From the NCBI GenBank assembly GCA_000004695.1, contig CM000155.2:992001-1056000 (forward strand): DNA of 64,000 bases. The letters run 5' to 3'. A program made the position numbers and the translations under genes. Positions 7,481 to 52,891 of the stretch are shown one piece after another (position 1 is the first letter of the stretch; each line of letters opens with the position of its first letter). Source of the DNA: Dictyostelium discoideum (lineage: Eukaryota). The notes under the pieces were generated by a model. The model made no database searches. It saw only the letters and a program-made list of their open reading frames with translations, and was not told where the DNA came from.

Positions 7481-8151
7481 ATGATTGAAATTAAAAATAA
7501 AAATATGAAGAGTAGTATAGGTGATGATGATGATGATTATGGTGGAGGAGGTAATAATAATAATAATAATAATAATAACAATATATCATCATCAATAGTA
7601 GTATCATCATATCCTCATTCACCACCAAATACACCAAACAATAATAACAATAATAATAATACAAATGGTAATAAAAAACAACACCATATTCAAGGTGAAT
7701 TTGATTATTATGACGAAGAAGAGGAGGAAGAGGAAGAAAGTGATATTGGAATTCAAAATCGATTATTCTTAAATCCAAATTATAAACAACATCATCGTAG
7801 TAGATCAATAACAATATCAGGATCACCAACACCAAAGAATTATACTCAAAATCAAAGATACTCTGATGATACAGTTTTATTGAAATCATCAAATGGTTGT
7901 GGTGGTAATAATAATAATAGTAGTAGTAATACTGCAACCACACTATCAGTTGGCTCATATGAATCACCATGTCGATTATTATCAAGTAGTGGCGGTAGTA
8001 ATAGTAATGGAGTTATATTCTCACCAATCTCTGTTACACCAACTGCATCACCATTAAATACACCAGTTAGTTCACATACTCTTCAATCAGTTACCTTAAC
8101 ATTATCACCATTTTCAATTCAAAAAAGATCTGCAACTATACAATTACCTTC

Positions 8152-8195
<44 letters not shown>

Positions 8196-8563
8196 CTACT
8201 ACAACAGATCAAAATTTATTAACTCCACCTGCAACACCACAAACACCTCAACAAAAAGTATTCTCACCACCAAGAAGAAGAAATACTTGTGCAAATTTAA
8301 CAAATAAATTATATTCAGTTTATTCACCACATAAATCACCACCAGATAATAATAATAATAGTAATAATAGTAATGAAGTAATAGTTAATTCACCAATTTC
8401 AATATCACTATCGTCACAAAAATATTTATCAAATCATCATCATCAACAACATCAACATCACCAATCTGTATCATTATCCGATTATTTATGTAATAAAACA
8501 AGTACTGATAATGAAAATGATGATGTATCAACAACAACTACTACAACAAATACAAATAAATCA

Positions 8564-8615
<52 letters not shown>

Positions 8616-9361
8616 GTATGAATTTATTAAATAAAATTAAAAGTAAATTAAAAGAAGATAAAATTAAACATTATGAAACGATATTTTCAGCATATAATGA
8701 ATCTTATGAAACATTGAAAGAGGGTGGTATTTCAGTATTGAATGGTGAAGTGTTGGTATGTATTTTTCAATATTTAGATATAAAGGAAATTTGTTGTTTA
8801 GCACAAACTTGTAGTTGGTGGAGAATAGTTTCAGAACAAAATGTATTATGGTTAAAGAAATTCAATGAACGATTTCAAAGACCTAAGACCATCATAGATA
8901 GATTTTCACCAAACGAATCATGGAAAGAGCTCTATATTCAACATTATTTCTTGGACACATCATATATGGAGTTTGAAAGATTATTATCACTGTTTCCAGT
9001 CACTGTAGAGTATGAACTTGACATTACAATATTGTTAAGTAAAGTATTGAATTACTTAAAACATACAGAATGTAGATCAGAATACATCGATAAATTGGAA
9101 CATCTTAAAAATATTCATCTTACATTTTCAAATAAAATCGAAGCTGCCAATTGTTATATTAAACATAGTGAATTAATATCTTGGGATTCAAATCAATATT
9201 TTCAACAAGAATTTGGTTATCCTCGTGAATCTCATTCAGATAGAAAAGAACGTATTCTAAAAGCTGCAATTCATTTATTATTTGAAAGTAAATATTGGGA
9301 ACGTTGTTTAATTTTAATTAATCAATTAAGAAAGAAATATAAAAAAGAATTAAAAAAACAA

Positions 9362-9459
<98 letters not shown>

Positions 9460-10054
9460 AATTAATAATAATAATAATATTAATAATAATAATAATGAAA
9501 ATAATGAAAATAATGAAAATAATAATAATAATAATTGTAATATACCAATAAAGAATTTATTAGTACTAAAAATGATTGAAATTTCGAAATTAGAACATCA
9601 ATGTTATCAATCAATTGAAAGTAAAGAAAGATTTTTCGAAGAATATTTCTTTGTAGAATTTCGTGGTAAAGGATCTTTTCCAAAGAGTGTAGATGGTAAA
9701 GATTTTATATTTCGTGGTAAAGAATTGGAGAAATTAGGTTCATTCGTATCAAGATTAAAAAATAGATATCCAGGTGCTCAAGTGATTCCAAAACAACAAG
9801 GTGTTGATTTATCACAAACAAATGGTCAATTCATTCATATTAGACCATGTAAACCTGTTTTATTACCAAAAGATATTATTAGTAGTGGTAGTGGTAGAGG
9901 TGGTAATATTTGTAACAATAGTAGTAAAATTATAAGTGGTATTAGTGGTTATTCAAATAAAACACATTATAAATCATTAAAATCATTTATAAATAATAAT
10001 TCAAAAGTATTTTATTTCTCTGCACCATTTAAAAAGAATTTAAATAATAATAAT

Positions 10055-10110
<56 letters not shown>

Positions 10111-10587
10111 ATTTTTAATGTTATGGACAAGAGATACATATATAATTTCAAAATCAATATTTCCATCATTAATTAGAAATTCAATGATTAGTGAAATTGT
10201 AGAGATTGAAAAGAATCCATTAGAGAATGCGATTGAATCATTAAAGAGAAAGAATAAAGAATTGGATAAAATATTTAATCAATGTAAAAAGAGTATGCAA
10301 TGGAATAGTCATTTAACAATGTCATTGAATGGTGTAGTGGATGCAGTGGTTTCTGGTGGTATCAATATGTATAGAATGTTCTTTCAACAATCTTATTTAG
10401 ATTCAAATCCAATCACTCATTTGGATTTACTAATTAAATTGAAACAATTATTATTGGATCAAAAATCATTGTTAGAGTTTGGACTTGATATTCATTCTCA
10501 TTTATGTCCTGATAATATGAAAGCACTTCAACAAAATATGGAATTATGTTTTGAAAAATGGAAACAAATTGTAAATGAATTAATAAT

Positions 10588-10621
<34 letters not shown>

Positions 10622-12004
10622 GTCAATAATCAAGATAAAGATAAAGATAAAAGAGAATCAACTGAAATTTATGATAATCATGTTAAACAATTATCAAGAT
10701 CTCATTCTGATTTAGAATCAATATTAAAACAATTAGATGAAAATACATCTGGCAGTACTTGTACTACACCAACTAAACAACAACAACAGCAAACTTCATC
10801 AACACCTTCATCACCATTATCAACTATTAATCAAATTCAAAATCAATTAAATCAAAATCAAATTGAACAATTATTGAAATTACAAACTGAAAAATCAAAA
10901 GAACGTGAAAGAGAAAAAGAAAGAAAGAAAGAAATGGAAAGTTTGGCTTTATTAGCTTCTCTAGAATTGGATTCAACAATTAATGAAAATATATTTGAAA
11001 TGGTAAATACTAATAATAATAGTAATAATCATAGAAATAGTGGTAAATTAACTTCAAATAAACCACCAATTCAAATTAAATCAATTACTACACCAATAAA
11101 ACAATCAAATCAACAACCAAATCAACAATCAAATCAACAATCAAATCAACAACCATTACCAATTCAACCACAAAGACCATCTTCATCATTATCTAATAGT
11201 AGTTCAAATATAACTTCAAATACATTATCAATACCAAGACCATCTTCATCTCTATCAAATTCATCACCTTGTTTATCAAATTCACCACCAAAATTAACAC
11301 CAACTAAATCAACTTTAAATATCAACCCTTCACCACAAAAGAAACCAACTTCTCCAAAAACTCAAAATAAAATCACTACAAAACTATCATCATCATCATC
11401 AACAACATCGGCATCAACTTCAACTTCTAATACACCAAAGACAACTACTACAAATTCAACCATTACAAATACAACATCATCACAAACAAACTCAACTTTA
11501 ACATCCACAACAACCAAACAAACTCCAACCAAATCTTCAAATAATTATTTGAAACCACCATCAGTAGCAAGACCTTCAACAATCTCAAGATCACTTACTT
11601 CTATTTCAACACCACCATCAACATCTAAATCATCCTCATCGTCAACAACAAATAAATTGAATATAACAACACCAACAAAAACTAGACCAACTATTGGCTC
11701 AAATACAACATTTATAACCCCTAAAAAAGAATCATTACCAATTCCAATAACACCTTCTTCTACAAAGAAATCATCATCATATTCATTATCATCAACATCA
11801 GTACCATCAACTACAACTACAACTACAACTTCTTCTCATTCATCATTCACTAGACCAACTCAAAGTACTTTAGCGAGAAAATTAGAAGTTGAATCAAAGA
11901 AATCAACAACATTAAGAATAAAATCAAAAGATAGACCAGCCATTATTGAACCAAAAACCCCACAAGCTAAAAAACAATTCATTGTACCAACAACACCAAC
12001 AAAT

Positions 12005-12035
<31 letters not shown>

Positions 12036-12355
12036 AATCAACTGGTATCACATCAAGTAGTTTTAAAAAGAGTCTTTATGAAATTGGTGATCCATCATTA
12101 ATATCTCCAACAATGTCGACAACATCATCATCATCATCATCAACATCATCAACAACATCATCAACTACATCATCTTCAGTATACTCAAGTTCTATGTCGT
12201 CTTCATACTCTTCAAGAAGTAGTGGTGGAATTAAAACTTCTTCACTATCATCATCCAGTAGCCATATGTTTGGTGGTAGTGGAATTCAAATTAAACATGG
12301 TAACAATAATAGTAAACTTTCTCCCTCTTCATTTAATCCAAATATGATTCAAATG

Positions 12356-12389
<34 letters not shown>

Positions 12390-12684
12390 ATTCATCATCA
12401 TCATCATCAACTGCTTCTACAACAACTACACCATCACCACCACTTTCGACAATAAATTTAAATACAAATACAATTCCATCACTTGATATTAGTAAGCCAA
12501 TCGAAAAACCACCACAACCAATTGCCTCTAAAAAACGTCTTAGTATTACTGATTCAATTAAAAGTGTTGTTAACCTTTTAAATGTTGATGATTCAAAGAA
12601 AATTAAAACTTCAACTTTAAAATCATCATCAATCTCTATAAATAGTTCAGTTTCATCTACTTTAAAACCTTTACCAAAAAAGAG

Positions 12685-12691
<7 letters not shown>
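7481..12691 (+). CDS. Large low-complexity protein with an F-box-like motif and a DOCK-family DHR-2 (CZH2) GEF domain, followed by a long Ser/Thr-rich tail
   Basis: A single 1736-aa ORF. F-box-like segment 'LNGEVLVCIFQYLDIKEICCLAQTCSWWRIVSEQNVLWLKKF'. DHR-2 lobes: 'KAAIHLLFESKYWERCLILINQLRKKY', 'FVEFRGKGSFPKSVDGKDFIFRGKELEKLGSFVSRLKNRYPG..QFIHI', 'YFSAPFKK..', 'NPLENAIESLKRKNKEL', 'NGVVDAVVSGGINMYRMFF', 'LCPDNMKALQQNMELCFEKW'. It has poly-N, poly-T (Thr) and poly-S tracts. No DHR-1 domain is visible. Confidence 0.7.
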
Positions 12692-12991: not shown

Positions 12992-13957
12992 ATGAGTATA
13001 ATTAAATTAATAAATGATAATTCTAATATTAAAGAATTAACAAAAATATTTAATGATTCATTTGCAGATTATGTTTATCCATTATCAGTTACAGAATTAT
13101 CACTTCAACAAAAGATTCAAGGTGATAATGTATCGTTAGATTATTCGATTGGTTTATATAATAAAGAAACCAATGAATTGGAAGGATTTATTTTACATGG
13201 TGTTGATAATTTAGAGAATCCAAAAAGATTATATAATTCAGCAACGGGTGTAATACCAAGTGCAAGAGGGAAATCAGTCGAACGTTGTTATAATTCAATG
13301 ATACCATATTATATTGAAAAAGGTATTGAAAGTATTATATTAGAAGTTGTAACAACCAATAACCGTGCATCAAAAGTTTATGAAAGATGTGGATTTAAAA
13401 TAATTAGTACAATCAACTCTTATAAAGGTTTAATTAATAAAGATTTATTAAAACCATTTTTATATAATCATCAAAGTGGCGATAGTGGTAGCGTTGAAGT
13501 TGACGAAGCCATGAACAATAAAATCAATATTAAAAAATTGGATTGTATAAATGACGATGTGGTTGAATTTTTATCAAGTCAAAATAAAAACTACCCAATG
13601 ATGATACCAACTTGGTCAAATTCAATTAAAGCAATTAAAAGAGAATTTGATTTAGGTTTTAATAAATGTTGGATTGCAACCACAACAGAGAATGATAAAG
13701 TGAATATTATTGGATTTTTATCAGTCAATGATCAAACTTTTAGAATTAGACAATTATTTGTATCACCTGATTACAGAAATAAAAATGTAGCAACCAATTT
13801 AATTCATACAATGGCATTAGAGTTTAATGAAAGTACAACATTTAATTTTGGTATTGATTCAAAATTTGATAATACTATTAATTTCTTTACAAAAAGATTA
13901 GGTTTCGCTTATCTTTTATCAGTTTATGAAATGTTATTAAATTTTGAAAATAAATAA
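12992..13957 (+). CDS. Tandem GNAT-fold N-acetyltransferase domain protein
   Basis: It starts at ATG 12992 ('MSIIKLINDNSN'); the tracked ORF 12854.. is poly-T read-through. Two acetyl-CoA-binding-like segments: 'ARGKSVERCYNSMIPYYIEKGIESIILEVVTTNNRASKVYERCGFKI' and 'QLFVSPDYRNKNVATNLIHTMALEF..FFTKRLGF'. Confidence 0.6.
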   Translation: MSIIKLINDNSNIKELTKIFNDSFADYVYPLSVTELSLQQKIQGDNVSLDYSIGLYNKETNELEGFILHGVDNLENPKRLYNSATGVIPSARGKSVERCYNSMIPYYIEKGIESIILEVVTTNNRASKVYERCGFKIISTINSYKGLINKDLLKPFLYNHQSGDSGSVEVDEAMNNKINIKKLDCINDDVVEFLSSQNKNYPMMIPTWSNSIKAIKREFDLGFNKCWIATTTENDKVNIIGFLSVNDQTFRIRQLFVSPDYRNKNVATNLIHTMALEFNESTTFNFGIDSKFDNTINFFTKRLGFAYLLSVYEMLLNFENK

Positions 13958-14155
13958 AAATTATTACTTTTATTTTATAAATAATTTTTTTTTATTTTTT
14001 TTTATTTAGTTAATAATAATAATAATAATATATTTTATTTTAGTTTTGTTTTTTTTATTTTTATTTTTTTTATTTTTATTTTATCTTTTATTTTTATCTT
14101 TTATTTTTATCTTTATTTTTTTATTTTTTTATTTTTATTTTTAGAGAGAATAGTT

Positions 14156-16876
14156 TCAATATCCAATAGGAATTTCAATATCAATTAAATAACCTTTTGA
14201 AATGAAATAATTAACAAATTTGTGAATTTTTGTTATTTTGGTGTGTAATTGAATATTTCTAGTGACAACACTTTCAATTTTGAAATTTGGATATAAATTA
14301 TTTAAAAGTAATTCACAAAAGGGAATAACGGAATGATTTGATAAATCTAAACGTTTTGTGAGATTATCAACACAATTTAAATCGGTTAATTTTAATAAAC
14401 TGTCAATATTTGTGAATAAACTTTGATATTTGACAATTAAACTTTCATTTGCATTTAAAAGAGATTTATTCCAAAAATCTTTAATTTTAGTTTGAATATT
14501 TGATTTTTCTTCTTGACTATTATTATTTTTGTTATTGTTGTTGTGAAATATTAAAATATGATTAATTAAATTGAAATTTTTTAATAATGATTCTCGATTT
14601 GATACTTTATGGTTAACAATTAAATTTGCCACTGATTGACAAGAACAAAATTTAAAGAATTTTTCAAATGATTTAGAATCCATTGAGGAGTTTAGTGTAT
14701 TTTCAAAAACCTTTAAAGAATAATAAAATACTCTTCCATTTTCCAATTCTTTACAAGATGGACAATTATTATAACTACTACCACTAATACTACTACTATT
14801 ACTACTATTATTACTAATATTTGAAAAAGTTAATTGAATAACTGAACCAACTGTTTGATTTGAAGAATCATTTAATAATTGTTGAATTAATTCCAAATGT
14901 TTCAAAAATAAATCATATCTTTTAATATTAAGGAAATAAAGTAAGTTTGAATTTAATGAATCATTAATATTATAAACCAAATTTGAAAACAAAGCTTTTG
15001 AAGATGGTGGTAATAATGATAAAGTATTTGAAGGTAAAATTGAAATTCTTTCAATTAAACTATCCATTAATTCATTATGATTCATTCCTCTATTACCAAA
15101 AATTCCTTTGCCAAATATTAGATTAAATGTAAAATAGTTTGGATTTAAATATTTTCTAATATCATAACCATCAAATTTATAATCTTTATCTTCAAAGTAA
15201 TGCTTTTTATCGTTGACTGGTTGATCATTAAAAACTGAAGTAATAAATGGAAATTCCATTAAATATTTGGTAAAGTATTGTGATTTAATATTTAAATAAT
15301 GAATTGAATGATAGATAGTATGATGAATTGGTATATTTGCAATTTGAATTAATCTATAAATATATCTAACCCTTTCAATAACTATACCATCTTTTGAAAT
15401 TAATCTTTTAAACATAAAGTTTATAATATCTTCTAAAACCAATAGATAGTGTTCGCTATTGTTGTTACTTGATGTATAATTTCTTTTATAAAGATCAATG
15501 AAAATTTCAATGCATTCAATAAGAGGAATTATATTTGCTGATGATGATTTAAAAAGAATTGGTTTGGATCTTGTATTTTCAAAAACTATAAAATGATAAT
15601 TATTTTTAAATTCATTCCATTTCTCTTTGAATTTTTCTAAATTTGATTCAATTAAATTATATGAATTATGGAATACTAATTTAAATACATGCGAGAATCC
15701 AAAATCTATAGCTCTAACCAAACATTTAAATGTTTCATCAATATGTTGATTGAAATTAATTTTAACTTTTAAAATTTCTAAATAATCATTTGAAGAAGAT
15801 GACGATGATAAAGAAGATGATGAAGAAGATGATTCACTTAAACTACTTGAAGTTTTTGTAATATGATTAACATATCTAAAGAAGTTTTGTGGGGTACCAA
15901 TTTTTGTAAAATTTGTTTTTTCTAAATAATTTGAAAATTTAACAATTTGATTAGCAGTTTCTAAATAAAAATATGGTATTGAATTAATATCAACAATGGA
16001 ATCAATTTGAAAAACTGTTTCATAATCTTGAGTTTTAATGGCTTCATTATAAGGAAACTTATATAACCATTGGAGATATCTAATATATTCTTGATTGTTA
16101 ACAACATTGGGTGGTGGTGGTGATAAAAATTTAAATTTTGGATTATTAATTTCTAATGATCTCTCCATTGCATATTGAACCAATTGATAGGTTTGAAAGT
16201 GAAATGATGATGATCTTTCATTAAATTGATAGAATAGGTCATCCAATGATTGATTTTCAATATTATCAAAAAACCAATCAATAGTTTCTTTATCTTTTAT
16301 TAAGATTTGAAATGATTTTAAATTTAATAGATGATTCCATTTATTTGGCAATATATGTTTGAATCTATTATCCCAACGATTGGTTGATTTTAAAAGATTG
16401 ATTAATTTTTCATAACTCTCTGAATCTTTTACATTTGAAAATATAAAGCTCTTTATTGTATAATCTAAATCTTTGTTTGAAAAGTATCTTTCATCCAATG
16501 ATATATAAAATTCAACAAATTCATAAAATTCATTGAAACTTGTATCCCATTTAAATGTTTTATATCTTAATTCTAATTTTTTAAATAATAATTGATTCTT
16601 AATTAAATCATTAATACTTTTATAATCAATATCAATATTATTATTATTTTCATTATTATCGCCATTATTATATAATGATACTAATGATTTGAATGAATTT
16701 GTATTAAATGATAATAACATCCAATTAAGTAACATTAAAATTTGTGGATTATTTGATAATTCTTTAATTGGTTCTTTATATTGATCTAAATAATTTTGAT
16801 AAAATTTATTGAAATCTTGTTTTGCCAATTGTTTATGAATTTCTTTTATTTTATTTTCTTCATTATCAATAAAACA

Positions 16877-16957
<81 letters not shown>

Positions 16958-18307
16958 GAGATTGTTGTTATTATTATTATCATTAATTATATTTTCAACT
17001 ATATCAATTGATTGATTAGTTGATTGATCAGTGATTTGAGATTTCTTTTGATACTCTTTAAATAGTTTCAAAGAGATAAGAGTACTTTTTGATTTTATTG
17101 ATTTTAATTTTAATAGTGAATATAGTTCTAATTTATTATCTGGTGAAAAAGTTGATAAATCAAATATAGTAGAATTATTTGAAATTAATTCAAATAATTC
17201 TTGACAACTTTCAATCTTTTCATAGGCTAATCTAATTAATTCTTTCTTTATTTCAATTGAAATCATCGATAAATCCTTATTTTTCATTAAAAAATGTAAA
17301 GGTGATGGAATCGATATAATGGTATAAGATCTCATTTGTTTAATTAAAAATTCTATTTGTTTTTCTAATACTATTTTTTGTTGTTGATATTGATTTTCTT
17401 GTTGATTATCTTGTTCTTGTTGTTGTATTTGTTGAAGTACTATTTGTAGTTGCTCCTCCTGTAGAAATGGTTGTTGATTTTGTATTTGTTGTTCTTGTAG
17501 TTGTTGTATTAATTGTTCTTGTTCTTGTTGTTGTTTTTGTTGTGGCATTTTTTGTTGTTGTTGAAATTGTAGTTCTTGTTGTTCTAGTGGTAGTAGATTA
17601 TGATGATGATGCTGTTGTTGTTGTGGTTGATATTGTTTTTGAAGATAATTATATGCAGAAAGGAGAGCTAACAATGAGAATTGTGGTTTATAGCTATTAA
17701 TGGTTGGGTGATGAGTATTATTTAAATTTTCGAAAACTTTCAATAATAATGAATCGGACATAATAAATGAGAATGGTTCATTTATTAAAATATTAAGAAT
17801 CTCTAAATTTGGTTGAGGGTTGATTCTATTATTAAATACAATTGATAATAAATCAAACTCTATTAACTTGTTTCTCTTTAATGTACTAATAGTTTGTAAA
17901 ATTTCTTTAAACATAATACACTCTTCTACTGTATTAACACTAAGATTATCAAACACAGATATCATTTTATTTAAAAATTTACCAATGCCAATTCTATCGA
18001 TTTTAGTGCGTTCAAGTTTGTTTTTCTCTAATTCTAATTTAAATTCTTGTAAACCATTTTTCTTTTCTAAAAAATAGTTGATTGTATATAAATATTTCTT
18101 ATTGAAAGATTCGATATCATTGATATTATCGTCATCAAATTCATTATAATAATTATTATTATTATTATTTAAATAAATATTCTCTTTAACGGGTGTATGA
18201 TATCTATAATCGACCCATTGCGTTGTTTTTAAATCATCCAAAATATAAAGAAATAGAAATTTATTTTTGAATACTTTCCAAAAAAGGATTTCATTGTGAT
18301 CTTCCAT
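14156..18307 (-). CDS. Uncharacterised 1383-aa protein with an N-terminal 'EILFWKVFKN' motif; paralog of the adjacent divergent gene
   Basis: A long uninterrupted ORF with poly-N/poly-Q tracts and no recognisable domain. It shares 'EILFWKVF(K/R)N.FL' and a downstream 'KT(T/E)(Q/W)W' motif with the gene at 18717. Confidence 0.6.
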
Positions 18308-18314
18308 TTTTTTT

Positions 18315-18349
<35 letters not shown>

Positions 18350-18716
18350 TTATTTATTTGTTTATATATTTAAATGTTTATTATTTGTTATTTATTTGTT
18401 TATTTAAATGACACCAAAATATCAAAGTTTTTTTTTTTGTTTTTTTATGCAGAAAAAAAAAAAAATAAAAAAATAAAAAAATAAAAAAAAATAATAAAAA
18501 TAAATAAAATAAAAAAATTGGAAAAAAAAATGAAATTCAGAGAAAATAAAAATTTTTTATAAAAAAGATATTATTTTTTTTTAAAAAAATTTTTGATTTA
18601 AGATATTTTTTATTTTAACTCAAAAAAATAAAAAAAAATTTAAAAAAAAACCACCCCTTATTTTTTTTTTTTTTTTTCATCACATTAAACCACTGTTGCT
18701 GATTATAAAATATAAA

Positions 18717-18770
18717 ATGAAAGAAGATTTAAATAATAATAATAACAATATTAATAATAATAATAATATT

Positions 18771-18801
<31 letters not shown>

Positions 18802-21122
18802 GTAATGATAATAATAATGATAATAATAATAATGAAATACTATTTTGGAAAGTTTTTCGAAATATTTTTTTGAAATCTAAAATTTTTAAAATAATTATTA
18901 ATAATTCAAAATTTAAAATTGGTATTTATCATTATGATGAAATCAATAAAACAGAGTGGATGATTCAAAATGGTCATTTAAATTTATTATGGGATAAAGT
19001 TGTAATTAAAAAAGAAAAAAGTTTAGTATTTGATTGTACTTTTAAAAAATTAATTGATAAAGTAAATAGAAAATATAAATTAAAAAATGAAGAAATGAAT
19101 ATATATTATCAATATTCAATTTTCAGTGTATTTAAAGATAATTTAGAATTCTTTAGAAACTTATTTACAAACTATCCACAATACTATCAAATACCATACA
19201 CAACCCATGAAGATTTAGTAAGATTCTCTTTAGAATATGATAATATAGCGTTAATAACAATTTTAATTCAAGATTATAATTATAAACCATCATATGAAGT
19301 TCTACAACAATCAATTGAAATTGGGTCAATAAAAGTTGCCAATTATTTATTTAATTATTTTAATAGTAGTAATAATAGTAGTAGTGATATTATGAATGAT
19401 GAAAAACTTTGGAGGATTGTGTTAGACTATAATTCAATTGATGATATTAGAATTTTAAATAAAAGAGTGGATTTTTTTATAAATAAATTGGGATTAAAAG
19501 TACCACAAACATTAAAGATGTCTACATCATCATCATCATCAAAATCAATGATTAGATTATTCAAAATAGATATTTATAGAGAACCAATTGAAACGATAAT
19601 AGATTGTTGTAAAACTGTGATTTATTTAAGAGAATTATTGGAACCATTAATTTCAAATTATGAACCACGTGGGCGATTTAGAATGGTTGATAGTGAATTA
19701 TTGAAATCTTTTAAATGGTTATCAATTGAAGAAATAAATGAAATTAATGCAACGTTTTCAAGTAAAGATAAAGAAAAAATAAGTGGTAAAGTTAATATTG
19801 GCGATGACAGAATTAAAAGGTTATATAATTTATTAATATTATTTTCATCACCTTGTAAAATCCAAGGAAATTATTCATTTTATCGTGCTAAATATTTCAA
19901 ACAATTTAAATTACCCGATTTTCCATGTCATTATTTTGGAAATTTCTCAAACCCAATTGGAAATAACATTTTAATTAATTCAAGCTTTTTTTATTGTGAA
20001 AATGATAAGGAGTCAATATCAGATTATTGTGATAAAGCAATTGAATATATTAGACCATCTGTTAATATTTATTATTCTAGAAGTTTCTCAAGTGATCATT
20101 TAAAAGATATTTTTAAAAGAGAAAATCTATTTTGTAATTGTTTAATTCAAGACCTTCTTAAAGTTAAACAGGTTGAAATTGCTGAAAATTTTATAAGCAA
20201 TATTAACAAAATTTTTCAATTTGAGTTATCTTTCTCGATAAATGTGCAAACTAAAACAAATGTTTCAAAAGAGGTATTTGATTTTATTATTAAACATTAT
20301 TTTAAAGATAAAGATTGTGATTTCATTTTCGATAGTTTAATTGGCACTAAAAGTTTAGCAAAAAGTAATTTCTATTTACTATTTTATTTAAATGAAAACT
20401 ATTCAAATGAGTTTGGAAATTATTTAAAACAAAATTCACATCTACTTTTAGATATATGGTTAAAAATCCCATCAAATGTAAATATTACAGATATTAAATG
20501 GTTGATTGATATCACTAAAAATTCAAAAATCTCAAATTTAAATATTAGAACACCAAGTATTCTTTCAAATTCTTATTTAGAACTAATCGATTATTTAAAT
20601 AATGAAATGAATAAGCCACCAAGTATTCTTTCAAATAGTTCATTACCTTGCTTATTATCAGCTATTCAATATTTGAAAGCAAATGGTAAATTTGAATTTT
20701 CAAAAGAGATTTTAAATTCATTAATTATTGAAACTGGTAATTTTAATAATATTTTCAAATCATTATATAAAGAAATGGTAATTAGAAATGATTTCAATTC
20801 CATATCATTACTTATTGAAAATCAAGAATTTAGTAAAAACAACATTTTCAAAAAGAAATTATTATTGAAAATGGTTGAATATGGTAAAAATGAACTTTTG
20901 GAAAAGACAATTAATATTTTTGAAAAATCAATTAATCAAACTTCTATAATTGTTCTTTTAATGAATGCATTTAGAATTGGTAATATTGACCAACTATTAT
21001 TTTTATCAAAAACATTTAATTATAAAATTTCAAAAAATTTATTTGGTATGATTAAACTTGGTGATTATCTACCATTAACAAATAATAATCATTATTTATA
21101 TCAATATATTAATGATAAATAA
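18717..21122 (+). CDS. Uncharacterised about 801-aa protein with an N-terminal poly-N followed by 'EILFWKVFRN'; paralog of 14156..18307
   Basis: The ATG at 18717 (MKEDLNNNN..) is the real start; the track begins at an upstream TTG. It is transcribed divergently from the paralog across an approximately 410-bp intergenic region. Confidence 0.6.
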
Positions 21123-21212
21123 AAAGTATTTTTTTCAAAATCTTGATTTACATCTTTAGAATTTTAAATTTTTGTTTTATTTTCTTTTTTTTTTATGTTT
21201 TTTTTTTATATT

Positions 21213-21860
21213 GGTTAATCATAATTTATCCATTAAAGGAAATAAACAATAATTAATAGTTTTATTTATGAATTTTAATTTAAAAAATTTAATTTTTTTT
21301 TTTAAGAAACCATAATTATTTCGGTTATCTAAATAGAATTTTGGTTTGTTAAAATATGCAAATCCAGTTATTAATGCCATGATATCTCTATATGCGTAGG
21401 TCCTAGAAAGGTCATAGTTTACTCATTTATAACACCATTCGAAATATTCCTTGTGATTGTCGTTTGGATAATTAAATAATGGATAGTTTGGTTTTGTTTT
21501 GACTATTTTGGGGTCACATTAATTCCAAGAGCAGATAACCATAAAATGTAATGTATTACATTGTTTAATATTAATAAGTTTTTAATAATCATAATATTAA
21601 TAATAGTAATAAAAATAATAATTATTAACAATAATAATTAAAATAATAATTAATTTATTTAGTTTTTTATATATTTTAGAGTTTTCGTTCGAAACTCCTC
21701 GGTGGAATATAACGAAAACTCGAAATTTATAAAAACTGAAAAAAATGAAAAAATAAAGTAGTTTTGATTCACGCTTTACAGCATTTATATAATATTAATT
21801 GTGTGTTCCTTTATTTATTATGATCAATATTGGGGGAGGAGACAGGGGAAACCACAACAT
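21213..21860. mobile_element. Remnant of a tRNA-gene-associated repetitive element (TRE-like?) lying 3' of tRNA-Ile
   Basis: The composition differs from the flanking AT-rich DNA. The distal end carries the motif 'TAATCA.TAATTTATCCATTAAAGGAAATA..AATTAAT', which recurs at 50816 and 51660. It sits directly beyond the exB box of the tRNA. Confidence 0.35.
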
Positions 21861-21912: not shown

Positions 21913-21985
21913 TGCTCGATGCAGGGATCGAACCTGCGACCGTGGCGTTATTAGCACCACGCTCTGCCGACTGAGCTAATCGAGC
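21913..21985 (-). tRNA. tRNA-Ile (anticodon AAU), 73 nt
   Basis: GCTCGAT-TA-GCTC-AGTCGGCA-GAGC-G-TGGTG-CTAATAA-CGCCA-CGGTC-GCAGG-TTCGATC-CCTGC-ATCGAGC-A. The acceptor stem is 7 bp and perfect, and the D, anticodon and T arms are canonical. Confidence 0.9.
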
Positions 21986-22320: not shown

Positions 22321-24654
22321 ATGAAAGGAAGAGCAAATCCAAAGAATGTTAAACCAACAAGTGGTAAAAAAGTTACAAAAAAGTTAGATAAAGGTGGAAA
22401 AGGAAATAATAAACAACAAAAATTAAAACAACAACAACAAAAACAACAACAACAATTACCAAAAACCAATAACCCAATTTTACATGCACAACAACAACAA
22501 ATTAAAAAAGATTATCAACATAGACCAATTAATATAAAGAAAAAACATGCAAATGATTATAGTAGAGTAAATTCAGATGAACGTTTAGAAGATGTAGATG
22601 ATATTTCATATGAAGAGTATAGACAATCTGAAATCAATACAAAGTTACGTGTTAAAGATCATGTTTTCGAAGGTGGTGATGAATTTGATAATTTTGATAT
22701 TTTAAATTCAGATGATGATTGCTTTGGTGATAATATTTTTGAATTTGATACAGCAGATTATGGAAGTACTGATTTCTTATCAGATGATCAAATCTCTCAA
22801 TTTAAAAGACAATTAAAAAAAGATAATATTTCAAAAGAGTATCATTTAAAAGATCAAAATGATAATAATAATAATAAAAATAAAAAAAAGAATAAAAATA
22901 ATAATGATGATGAAGACGATGATGAAGATGATGAAAATAATAATAAAAATCAAACTAAATTATCAAAAAAAGAAAAAGAAAGAATTAAACAAGAGAAAAG
23001 ATTACAAGAAGCTAAAGAAATTCAATTTAAAGAATTACCACCAATAAAGAAAAGATATTGGAAAGATACAATGAAACAGTTGACAAGTGAAGATCATCGT
23101 GAAATGCGTATTAAAATCAAAGCAAATGTTAGTACAAGTTTCGATGGTCAAGAGATACCAAGACCAATAATAACATTTGAAGATCAAGATTTACCATTGT
23201 CAATGAAAAAGTTTATTGGATTTCTTACAACTAAATATCCATCGATTACAGCACCAACACCAGTTCAATCACAATGTTGGCCAGGTATTTTAAGTGGTCA
23301 AGATATTTTATCGATTGCTCAAACTGGTTCAGGTAAAACATTGGGTTACCTATTACCAGCGATTCCAAACATTTTAGAACATTTACGTCAAAGGAAAATC
23401 AGACGTCAACAAATGACAATGCAAGAGAAATTAGAGAATAAAAAGAAATCAAAGTTATTAAAAAATACAAATATGGGACCAATGGTGTTAATTATCGTAC
23501 CAACTAGAGAATTGGCAAAACAAGTCGAATCATCATGTAAACCATTGCGTTCAAAGTTTAACATTCATTCAATCGCTATCTATGGTGGTGTTGATGCAAA
23601 TGAACAAAAAGATATTCTAGGTCAAGAACATAATGAAATCATCATTGCAACACCGGGTCGTTTGGTTGATTTAATTCAAAGATCAAAGGAAGTCGTTGGT
23701 TTATTGGGTGGTGTTGGTATGTTAATTCTTGATGAAGCCGATAGAATGTTACAATTGGGTTTCGGTGATCAACTTCAAAAGATCTCTGAACAAATTCGTC
23801 CAGATCGTCAAACTCTTATGTTTTCTGCAACTTTTCCACAAACTATGCAAGATGCCGCCAAAAAATGGTTAACAAATCCATTGAAAATTAGAGTTAAATC
23901 AAGTTCAACCAATCAAGGTAGCACCTCAATCATCTCTAAAAATGTTAAACAAGTGGTTAAACCAATCGCTGAAAAAGAGAAATCAAAATATTTAACAACT
24001 TTCATAAACTCAATTATGAAGAAAGAACTATTACTTAGAAATAGAAGTTTAATTTTAATCTTTGTAAATACTATTAAATCGGTTAAACCAATCCTAACTG
24101 TAATCGAGAAAATGTGTGACCAATTTCGTGAAAGAAAATATAAATGTGGTGCAATTCATGGTGATATGAAACAATTTGAAAGAGATTCAGTCATTGATAA
24201 CTTTAAATCTGGTAAAATCTCAATTTTGGTTGCAACTGATATCCTTGGTAGAGGTATTCATATTGGTGGTAATCTTAGATTCGTCATAAACTATGATTTC
24301 CCATCATCCTTGGAACAATATGTACATAGAGTTGGTAGAACTGGTAGACAAGGTAATAAAGGTCATGCTTTAACTCTATTCACTGATACTCCACAAAATA
24401 CTCCAATGGCAAGAGGTTTAATTAAAATTTTAGAAGAATGTAAACAACAAATCTCTCCTGATTTAATTAAATTGGCTGATAATTTTAATGGTATAGTTTC
24501 AAATGAATTTGATTCCATTAAAAAATTATTAGTAAATCAAGAGGATCAAGATGATGAAGAAGAAAATGTTGATCAAGAAATGAATGATATTAATCAAAAT
24601 GATGATGATGATGAAAATAATAATTTTAATTCTGATGATTCGGATAGAGATTAA
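22321..24654 (+). CDS. DEAD-box ATP-dependent RNA helicase with a Lys-rich N-terminus
   Basis: Motifs 'AQTGSGKTLGYLLPAI', 'PTRELA', 'TPGRLVDL', 'DEADRML', 'SAT', 'HRVGRTGR'. Confidence 0.9.
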   Translation: MKGRANPKNVKPTSGKKVTKKLDKGGKGNNKQQKLKQQQQKQQQQLPKTNNPILHAQQQQIKKDYQHRPINIKKKHANDYSRVNSDERLEDVDDISYEEYRQSEINTKLRVKDHVFEGGDEFDNFDILNSDDDCFGDNIFEFDTADYGSTDFLSDDQISQFKRQLKKDNISKEYHLKDQNDNNNNKNKKKNKNNNDDEDDDEDDENNNKNQTKLSKKEKERIKQEKRLQEAKEIQFKELPPIKKRYWKDTMKQLTSEDHREMRIKIKANVSTSFDGQEIPRPIITFEDQDLPLSMKKFIGFLTTKYPSITAPTPVQSQCWPGILSGQDILSIAQTGSGKTLGYLLPAIPNILEHLRQRKIRRQQMTMQEKLENKKKSKLLKNTNMGPMVLIIVPTRELAKQVESSCKPLRSKFNIHSIAIYGGVDANEQKDILGQEHNEIIIATPGRLVDLIQRSKEVVGLLGGVGMLILDEADRMLQLGFGDQLQKISEQIRPDRQTLMFSATFPQTMQDAAKKWLTNPLKIRVKSSSTNQGSTSIISKNVKQVVKPIAEKEKSKYLTTFINSIMKKELLLRNRSLILIFVNTIKSVKPILTVIEKMCDQFRERKYKCGAIHGDMKQFERDSVIDNFKSGKISILVATDILGRGIHIGGNLRFVINYDFPSSLEQYVHRVGRTGRQGNKGHALTLFTDTPQNTPMARGLIKILEECKQQISPDLIKLADNFNGIVSNEFDSIKKLLVNQEDQDDEEENVDQEMNDINQNDDDDENNNFNSDDSDRD

Positions 24655-24885: not shown

Positions 24886-26043
24886 ATGTTAGAATTAAGA
24901 TTAGGAACTTGGGAACAATTTAAATTAAATACTTATTCAAATTATCCAGAATGGGGTGATTCAATTAATATTGAACATTATTGGGAAAGAGAAAGAGTAT
25001 CAAAAGATTGTGTCACTGGACATAGACCATGGATTTTAGTTGATAGTGAACAACCTGATGAAATTTTAGCATCATGTGAATCATATACTCAAGAATCACC
25101 ATATTGTTTAAAAGGAACCAATGAAATTAAATATGGATTATCAGAATCAATAGCTAGTGTTTTCGTTGAACCAAAACATCGTAATAAAGGTTACGCAACA
25201 AAATTAATGAAACTTATTTATGATAGATTTAAAAATCAAGATAAAAGAATTTTTTGTGAACTCTATTCAGATATCAATCCAATAGTTTATGAGAAATGTG
25301 GTTGGATTCAAAATCCTCCAACTACTTTAAAAATTAATTTAAATGATAATACAACGGTTTCAAAATTTTTAAATTCAATTAATAATAATGACAATCAATT
25401 TGAATTTATAAATGAAAATAATTCAAAACCAGTTACAGAAAGTAATATTGAATTAGTTTTAAAAAAAGGTATTGAACATACTGAAAAAACATTGATTGAA
25501 ATTGCAAATCATAATGAAACTAATTCATCAATTGAATATGTTTTCTCAAAACAATTTACAAAATCCGAATTTTATTGGGAAATTTCTCAAGCTAAACTTT
25601 ATTCAACTATTATTGAAGGCTTTGAAGCTCCAACTGTATTTGGTCATTGTATTTTAAATAAAAAAGTTGATGAATTAAAAGATTTTAATGATGTAAAGAG
25701 TTTTATTGTTTGGACTTTTGATTATAGAGAAAAATGTTTAAAAATTTTAAAATTATTTGCAGATTCAGAATTAGATTTTAAATTTTTATTAAAGAAATCA
25801 TATGATCAAGCTTTAAAATCAAATCTCCAATCAATTTTAGCATGGTGGCCAAAATCTTCAAATGATAAATTTAAAAAAGAATTTGTTGATTCAATTAATC
25901 AAGAAATAATTATTAGAGATGGTTCAATTCCAATGGTTACATCTTGGATTAATTTAAATGGTAATAATAATAATAATAATAATAGCTCAACTGATATTAA
26001 TAAAGGTATTTGGATAAATGTTGAAAAATTTGGTTGGGTATAA
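24886..26043 (+). CDS. GNAT-like acetyltransferase-domain protein
   Basis: 'FVEPKHRNKGYATKLMKLIYDRF' matches GNAT motif A (R/Q-x-x-G-x-A). Single ORF of 385 aa. Confidence 0.5.
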   Translation: MLELRLGTWEQFKLNTYSNYPEWGDSINIEHYWERERVSKDCVTGHRPWILVDSEQPDEILASCESYTQESPYCLKGTNEIKYGLSESIASVFVEPKHRNKGYATKLMKLIYDRFKNQDKRIFCELYSDINPIVYEKCGWIQNPPTTLKINLNDNTTVSKFLNSINNNDNQFEFINENNSKPVTESNIELVLKKGIEHTEKTLIEIANHNETNSSIEYVFSKQFTKSEFYWEISQAKLYSTIIEGFEAPTVFGHCILNKKVDELKDFNDVKSFIVWTFDYREKCLKILKLFADSELDFKFLLKKSYDQALKSNLQSILAWWPKSSNDKFKKEFVDSINQEIIIRDGSIPMVTSWINLNGNNNNNNNSSTDINKGIWINVEKFGWV

Positions 26044-52808: not shown

Positions 52809-52891
52809 TGCAAGAGGCGAGATTCGAACTCGCGAACCGAATGGATGAGATCTTAAGTCACACGGATTTAACCAGACTTTCCTACCCTTGC
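52809..52891 (-). tRNA. tRNA-Leu (anticodon UAA), type II, about 83 nt
   Basis: GCAAGGG-TA-GGA-AAGTCTGGTTAAA-TCC-G-TGTGA-CTTAAGA-TCTCA-(long variable arm TCCATTCGGTTC)-GCGAG-TTCGAAT-CTCGC-CTCTTGC-A. The acceptor stem pairs at 7 of 7 (one G-U), the T arm is canonical, and the anticodon stem has one U-U mismatch. Confidence 0.75.

Follow-up and report, generated by a model that had tools for sequence, protein, structure and literature searches.

Two large uncharacterized genes stand head to head in a 64,000-nucleotide stretch of Dictyostelium discoideum DNA (GenBank assembly GCA_000004695.1, contig CM000155.2, positions 992,001 to 1,056,000 of the forward strand), and the proteins they encode open with the same short motif, EILFWKVF(K/R)N. 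The whole stretch is hereafter called the window, and all positions are counted from its first letter. With a probability of roughly 0.7, these proteins, H (1383 aa) and I (801 aa), represent two distinct subfamilies, of ancient divergence, within a large dictyostelid-specific multigene family, the members of which are all-alpha solenoids of degenerate ankyrin-type (ANK) repeats. In this family, a conserved N-terminal module some 60 residues long would open with the motif as its first helix, and the second half of the module would form the first repeat of an ankyrin-like array that is followed by a highly divergent all-alpha body. The analyses described below establish the module, its family-wide distribution, its place where the repeat stack begins and, for I and many other members, the ankyrin relationship. 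The pair had been read in the original prediction as an inverted local duplication sharing a bidirectional promoter.

Gene H occupies positions 14156-18307 on the minus strand. It is an uninterrupted open reading frame (ORF) of 1383 aa with poly-N, poly-Q and poly-S tracts, and represents the H-type (long-linker) subfamily. Gene I, on the plus strand at 18717-21122, represents the I-type (short-linker) subfamily; its ORF is listed with 808 aa from a TTG at 18696, and comprises 801 aa when counted from the first ATG at 18717. The two start codons are separated by a divergent intergenic region, to which no strand is assigned (18308-18716), of 409 bp with 10 % GC, where both promoters and both 5′ untranslated regions are presumed to lie. 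The divergent layout of the two ORFs around an AT-rich spacer of about 410 bp is therefore as originally described.

The N-terminus of H reads MEDHN-EILFWKVFKNKFL, and its core motif covers residues 6-18 (18254-18292, minus strand), where helix 1 of an N-terminal hairpin lies and helix 2 begins. In I, a leader of 39 residues, rich in poly-N over residues 6-39 (18732-18833, plus strand), lies upstream of the module and is directly followed by the core motif EILFWKVFRNIFL (residues 40-52; 18834-18872, plus strand). Eleven of the 13 core residues are identical in the two proteins (BLASTP E 0.006). That a shared motif opens each protein, after poly-N in the case of I, is confirmed at a level far beyond chance. 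A hidden Markov model (HMM) built from nine sequences recovers the whole module at both N-termini. In H it spans residues 4-98 of 1383 (18014-18298, minus strand; 51.8 bits, E 3.4e-15); the hairpin is followed there by a long linker, which holds the element TTQWVDY and a poly-N insert, and then by a degenerate first repeat, YTINYFLEKK..KLELEKNKL. In I it spans residues 36-95 of 801 (18822-19001, plus strand; 81.3 bits, E 2e-24) and comprises the hairpin, a short linker and a first ankyrin-like repeat, INKTEWMIQNGHLNLLWDKV.

A chance resemblance or low-complexity artefact of AT-rich coding DNA might be suspected, as the window has a GC content of ~22 %, at which F, K, N, I and L codons are very frequent, and coding tracts of poly-N, poly-Q and poly-T/S are abundant in it. 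This explanation is effectively refuted. Across all 64 kb, a six-frame regular-expression search and a profile HMM scan found the motif at two places only, in H and in I, and the HMM E-values are of the order of 1e-15 and 1e-24. The 114 significant matches among 1.84e9 proteins described below conserve W, V and M, and the controls gave no decoy matches. The HMM scores of 51.8 and 81.3 bits, together with an alignment of the two family profiles by hhalign at E 9e-8, exclude chance.

The extent of the similarity between H and I depends on the depth of the comparison. BLASTP aligns the 13 motif residues and nothing further, while the H family and the I family, compared as profiles, are homologous over 62 N-terminal columns (hhalign 94.4 %, E 9e-8). 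Homology by profile thus covers the N-terminal ~60-95 residues and passes the limit of about 12 residues on which the original prediction had made its claim depend. That prediction had also extended the similarity a short way past the motif by pairing 'LDDLKTTQWVDYRYH' of H with 'YHYDEINKTEWM' of I. Similarity beyond the motif is real at the profile level, but this particular pairing is mis-registered: the profile alignment places 'INKTEWMIQNGHLNLLWDKV' of I opposite 'LYTINYFLEKK..KLELEKNKL' of H (residues 72-98), so that the H segment TTQWVDYRYH and YHYDEINKTEWM of I are out of register. The H element TTQWVDY, which appears as TEWVEY in relatives, belongs to the linker and is peculiar to the H-type subfamily.

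Nothing could be aligned over the remaining ~90 % of the two proteins. When the module was removed from 109 family representatives and the remainders were compared all against all (E ≤ 1e-5), I fell into a cluster of 28 members and H into a cluster of 26 members, with no path connecting the two. Profiles of these 26- and 28-member clusters gave a probability of less than 1 % for homology between the remainders of H and I (hhalign). Since BLASTP, remainder clustering and alignment of the deep cluster profiles are all negative beyond the module, homology between H and I is, as far as sequence comparison goes, demonstrable over ~60-95 residues and nowhere else. Paralogy of H and I over the whole protein is rejected on the basis of the same three approaches.

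The distribution of the module was established with a profile of 59 positions, searched exhaustively with HMMER against 1.84 billion cluster representatives; the exhaustive search was needed, as a word-indexed search with the short module profile gave a single match. It returned 114 representatives at E ≤ 1e-3 and eight at E ≤ 1e-10. The consensus reads E-LFWKVFRN-YL---IF--I, a linker of ~5-25 residues, and [KR][FY]--I-S-EWMI-N----LLK-K[LIV], that is, a two-helix hairpin broken at a near-invariant Asn, a variable linker and a first ankyrin-like helix pair. In an alignment of 110 sequences the most constant positions are I21 and K59 (both 99 %), N14 (96 %), L56 (92 %), F8 (91 %) and W46/M47 (~83 %). 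Among the 114 matches the module is nearly always N-terminal, in proteins of 650-1600 aa, and is internal in several members (P0018 at residue 168, P0045 at 183, P0070 at 385 and P0072 at 394).

All 26 named matches that were looked up or reported are dictyostelid proteins, and an unnamed match, P0028, is probably spurious. The genera concerned are Dictyostelium (D. discoideum AX4 and other strains, D. purpureum, D. citrinum, D. firmibasis and D. dimigraforme), Polysphondylium (P. violaceum), Heterostelium (H. album), Tieghemostelium (T. lacteum) and Cavenderia (C. fasciculata). Several distant members carry the UniRef name 'Ankyrin repeat-containing protein'. In AX4 itself, the uncharacterized proteins DDB_G0289603, DDB_G0270810, DDB_G0268326 and DDB_G0282547 have an N-terminal module like that of H and I. 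The first of these is a full-length paralog of H (E 3.6e-40 after removal of the module). Like the dictyostelid ankyrin proteins named by UniRef, all four are database entries with no described function. The relatives of H comprise orthologs at 85-93 % identity and a group of paralogs that includes DDB_G0289603 (27-30 % identity, E 4e-32), and those of I include proteins with 38 % and 28 % identity. All of these relatives of H and I keep the motif, for example as EPIFWKVIHNVYLLKLILERV and EILFWKVFRNKYLQKFILDRL.

No Pfam model covers the module in H, I and the 51 family members scanned, and the original remark that neither H nor I contains a recognizable domain holds at the Pfam level. The motif strings and DDB_G0289603 gave no mention in the literature searched, and a published account of lineage-specific expansions in dictyostelids mentions neither ankyrin proteins nor the module family. 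The protein collection searched contains AX4 proteins of the same family (DDB_G0289603 and DDB_G0270810, for example) and no exact copy of H or of I. The best matches to H and I come from assemblies labelled 'D. discoideum' or 'cf. discoideum' and reach no more than 85-93 % identity (synonymous divergence, dS, ~0.09), a gap far above what is expected within a species. Either the collection lacks the entries of the window, or those assemblies come from cryptic species.

Structure prediction adds a view of how the module sits on the body of the protein. A first AlphaFold2 (AF2) model of I, based on a five-sequence alignment, was unusable, with a predicted local distance difference test (pLDDT) score of 50. 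A second alignment of 110 rows, combining full-length I-type members with the N-terminal regions of all others, yielded a model with pLDDT 76.5 and a predicted template modelling score (pTM) of 0.69, all-alpha and composed of many pairs of helices of 8-14 residues. In this model the module begins with a helix at residues 2-13 (…EILFWKVFR), breaks at the invariant Asn, continues with a helix at 15-27 and, after a less confident linker, ends with helices at 44-49 and 53-62 (TEWMIQ / HLNLLWDKV). Both conserved blocks reach a pLDDT of ~90.

These features bear on a further explanation, in which the motif would serve as a signal for N-terminal sorting or, as an amphipathic helix, for membrane binding. 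The motif is indeed aromatic and basic, and most members have it among their first 30 residues. The predicted structure places it within a folded domain at high confidence, and a conserved repeat block always follows it. As several members carry the module internally and, in I, it lies behind the 39-residue poly-N-rich leader, an N-terminal targeting function is very improbable.

The I model, in which short antiparallel helix pairs are stacked with a period of ~30-35 residues, resembles ankyrin repeats (Pfam clan Ank: PF00023, PF12796 and PF13637). Foldseek comparisons of the model against the Protein Data Bank (PDB) gave weak, generic alpha-solenoid matches, none of them significant. Against the viral library BFVD, giant-virus ankyrin proteins and the African swine fever virus (ASFV) multigene family MGF 505 ranked at the top, again without significance (E ≥ 0.014, TM-scores of 0.1-0.28). 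The predicted fold is consistent with a degenerate ankyrin-type solenoid, without being decisive. The viral families (those of mimivirus, pandoravirus and pithovirus, and MGF 505 of ASFV) are likewise large, fast-diverging and lineage-specific expansions of long, degenerate ANK-like solenoids. The resemblance lies in weak structural matches and in the mode of expansion. Among the matches to the 1.84 billion representatives there is no viral protein with the LFWKVFRN module, the named matches all being dictyostelid.

The evidence from sequence for the ankyrin relationship is more direct. Of the 51 members scanned, five contain Pfam-significant ankyrin repeats downstream of the module (best E 2.5e-30); in P0072, for example, the module occupies residues 394-443 and the ankyrin repeats 528-738, and P0064 and P0074 are similarly arranged. 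A designed consensus ankyrin repeat in three copies, patterned on published designs, served as the seed of a jackhmmer search, which was run for five rounds against the family together with 250 reversed or shuffled decoys. It gathered 60 real members, among them I, at residues 167-247 and 685-763 (E 1.7e-5), and not a single decoy. In short members, the match to the resulting profile also covers the second half of the module.

Alignment of subfamily profiles to this ankyrin profile delimits the repeats further. In I, N-terminal ankyrin-like repeats extend over residues 78-215 (18948-19361, plus strand; hhalign 92.6 %, E 4.7e-7) and C-terminal ones over residues 682-766 (20760-21014, plus strand; ...MVEYGKNELLEKTI...AFRIGNIDQLLFL...; hhalign 95 %, E 3.9e-8), the latter agreeing with the jackhmmer match at 685-763. 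In H, an ankyrin-like segment at residues 74-179 (17771-18088, minus strand) is moderately supported (hhalign 75 %, E 2.5e-5), and a possible second segment near the C-terminus, at residues 1318-1374 (14186-14356, minus strand; ...KFVNYFISKGYLIDIE...), gives a weak match (hhalign 26 %, E 7e-4). Reversed-profile controls reached 0.1-0.4 % (0.1 % for H 74-179 and 0.4 % for I). In both proteins the N-terminal match begins in the second half of the module. Sequence and structure together link I to ankyrin repeats. Many other family members are homologous to the ANK consensus at the profile level, and some have Pfam-significant repeats directly downstream of the module. For H the profile evidence suggests such a link weakly.

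Several observations weigh against the reading of H and I as ankyrin-type solenoids. Neither protein matches any Pfam ankyrin model, even at E ≤ 1, and the TPLH-type signature (G-x-TPLH) occurs in neither, a single SPLH at residue 335 of H being the nearest approach. The jackhmmer search reached nine members of the H-type cluster and not H itself; the tie of H to ankyrin repeats is that of its subfamily profile alone, at 75 %. The argument is also one of transitive homology, because the ankyrin profile used already holds segments of family members. In H and I, repeats can be recognized at the two ends alone, with a long, unassigned central alpha-helical region (~400-900 residues) between them, and canonical ankyrin domains lack the two-helix N-terminal hairpin that is specific to this family. 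Finally, in the ortholog comparison described next, the ratio of nonsynonymous to synonymous divergence (dN/dS) of the module is ~0.56, based on very few sites, and is not below that of the rest of the protein.

The head-to-head arrangement is conserved in a related genome. In assembly GCA_054859385.1 (locus L001), an ortholog of H stands head to head with a gene of 822 aa that is 90 % identical to I, across a spacer of 375 bp (409 bp in the window) that is ~90 % identical. The flanks also correspond, with a DEAD-box helicase and a GNAT acetyltransferase on one side, and a GNAT acetyltransferase and a gene of 1760 aa on the other. Over aligned codons the H orthologs are 93 % identical (dN/dS 0.36) and the I orthologs 90 % (dN/dS 0.44), with dS values of 0.08-0.10. 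H and I are under purifying selection. The identity of the spacer equals the neutral expectation (dS ~0.09) and is thus uninformative on shared regulatory elements.

A local inverted duplication kept as a co-regulated pair on one bidirectional promoter is, in the light of these data, an unlikely origin for the two genes. In its favor, H and I belong to the same superfamily, and their divergent orientation, their spacing of less than 1 kb (409 bp) and the preservation of the arrangement in the related genome correspond to the layout of a bidirectional pair. The two other loci examined have no adjoining family member, so that clustering is not the rule and the adjacency of H and I may be meaningful. 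The two proteins are, however, far from being each other's nearest relatives. For H, 24 of 89 other family representatives match or surpass the 11/13 identity of the core, and for I nine of 89 do. When 100 N-terminal residues are compared, I comes 57th among the 79 matches of H, and H is absent from the 109 matches of I. Each has much closer paralogs elsewhere and in other species, and no similarity was found outside the module, even with the profiles of 26 and 28 sequences.

The DNA points in the same direction. The 39 nucleotides encoding the motif are identical at 29 positions in the two genes, with synonymous differences at six of the 11 codons for identical residues, and the inverted repeats in 14000-21300 are limited to low-complexity arms of poly-A/T and AAT. 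The local inverted duplication proposed originally is therefore not borne out, and recent inverted duplication or gene conversion is unsupported. A single chance adjacency would not be improbable, given the dozens of members presumably present in each genome. The proximity of H and I reflects either an ancient local duplication or a chance encounter of neighbors in a big family, and not a recent inverted duplication. Divergent neighbors of long non-coding RNAs (lncRNAs) in Dictyostelium are not generally co-expressed (PMC5295588), so a promoter shared by H and I is not to be assumed.

The module might cap the solenoid at its N-terminus and nucleate its folding, and possibly also serve as a common docking surface, while the divergent repeat body would provide a specific protein-binding surface. 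The most likely role of H and I would be that of protein-protein interaction scaffolds or adaptors. The lysine of the LLK-K segment (K94 of I, window positions 18998-19000, model residue 59), on helix 2 of the first repeat, is conserved at 99 % across 110 strongly diverged paralogs; it is of the exposed type and yet near-invariant within a repeat cap, and may be considered the best candidate for a functional site.

A stronger version of docking would make the module an adaptor resembling an F-box or SOCS-box, through which all members bind one partner, for example a ubiquitin-ligase core, while the hypervariable ankyrin-like body selects the targets. Substrate-receptor families typically have this build, in which a short terminal module under strong conservation is attached to a repeat body that diverges fast. 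The polar and near-invariant N14 (96 %) and K59 (99 %) and the conserved basic positions K10, R/K/H13 and K57 would be superfluous for a simple hydrophobic cap, and the weak structural neighbors include ankyrin proteins of giant viruses and Legionella with a fused F-box. Families of F-box receptors (F-box with LRR, WD40 or ANK repeats; Legionella AnkB; the F-box-ankyrin and F-box-FNIP proteins of giant viruses) share the logic of a conserved helical head with variable repeats, and are likewise expanded; FNIP/F-box fusions have been described (PMC9525666). The H/I family differs from them in having no sequence similarity to F-boxes and in that the second half of its module is itself the first repeat.

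Such an adaptor identity is distinctly improbable on the present evidence. No Pfam F-box model matches H, I or 55 other members, although the same library detects the F-box of a neighboring gene, and the module profile aligned to that F-box with a probability of 0.2 % (hhalign). An F-box identity is rejected at the sequence level on these two results. Comparison of the module profile with PDB sequences gave no match. In the AF2 model the hairpin immediately precedes the first repeat, in the position expected of a cap, and the position of N14 at the break between two helices suggests a structural role. A link to the FNIP/IP22 repeats of Dictyostelium was also rejected, as none of the 51 members scanned has an FNIP match and the paper on FNIP structure does not contain the motif. 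More specific still, and improbable, is the idea that the module is an undescribed dictyostelid adaptor domain coupling a hypervariable ankyrin-like array to a common effector, such as a ubiquitin-ligase core or a signalling hub. If so, this family of more than 100 representatives would be a lineage-specific repertoire of substrate receptors or surveillance proteins following the logic of F-box or SOCS-box families, with H and I as co-regulated receptors of differing specificity.

The neighborhood of the two genes contains further features. At lower coordinates than H, a gene at 7481-12691 (plus strand) encodes a protein of 1736 aa rich in low-complexity tracts and is syntenic with the 1760-aa gene of L001. 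Its F-box-like domain (residues 423-461, E 1.2e-8), used above as a positive control, is accompanied by a match to DOCK-type DHR-2 lobe C (residues 940-1032, E 4.9e-10). Such a combination of an F-box with part of a DOCK guanine nucleotide exchange factor domain is unusual. Two different GNAT acetyltransferase genes, at 12992-13957 and 24886-26043 (both plus strand), lie one on each side of the H/I pair; the second is LYC1-like, and a DEAD-box helicase gene (22321-24654) separates it from I. The whole block is collinear with L001. The gap of 1.2 kb between the 3′ end of I and the helicase gene contains a tRNA-Ile(AAT) gene (21913-21985, minus strand), and a tRNA-Leu(TAA) gene is found at 52809-52891 (minus strand). 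Genes for tRNAs are integration targets of Dictyostelium retroelements.

Two deposited models of H relatives appear to need correction. For the H ortholog P0005 (L001, 10001-14075), the deposited protein of 1333 aa ends in ...KIESVVI, and a continuous ORF runs on to ...IRNIQLHTKITKIHKFVNYFISKGYLIDIEIPIGY, the end common to H of the window and P0006; the annotated 3′ intron of P0005 is probably a gene-model error. P0006 lacks the N-terminal motif, starts with MQWVGYRY and is probably a model truncated at its 5′ end.

The H/I pair is an ordinary case of a multigene family with one undescribed conserved module that is absent from Pfam, and the gain for annotation is modest and without surprise. 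The useful result is a correction, in that a short motif of two neighboring genes, read as the trace of a local duplication, is actually the signature of a superfamily. If the module binds a common partner, it would define a new adaptor or receptor system; if it is a mere repeat cap, the multigene family is an ordinary one. More than 100 representative 'hypothetical proteins' of dictyostelids can be grouped by this single N-terminal module and described as degenerate ankyrin-type solenoids, which gives a handle on an uncharacterized lineage-specific expansion in the social amoebae.

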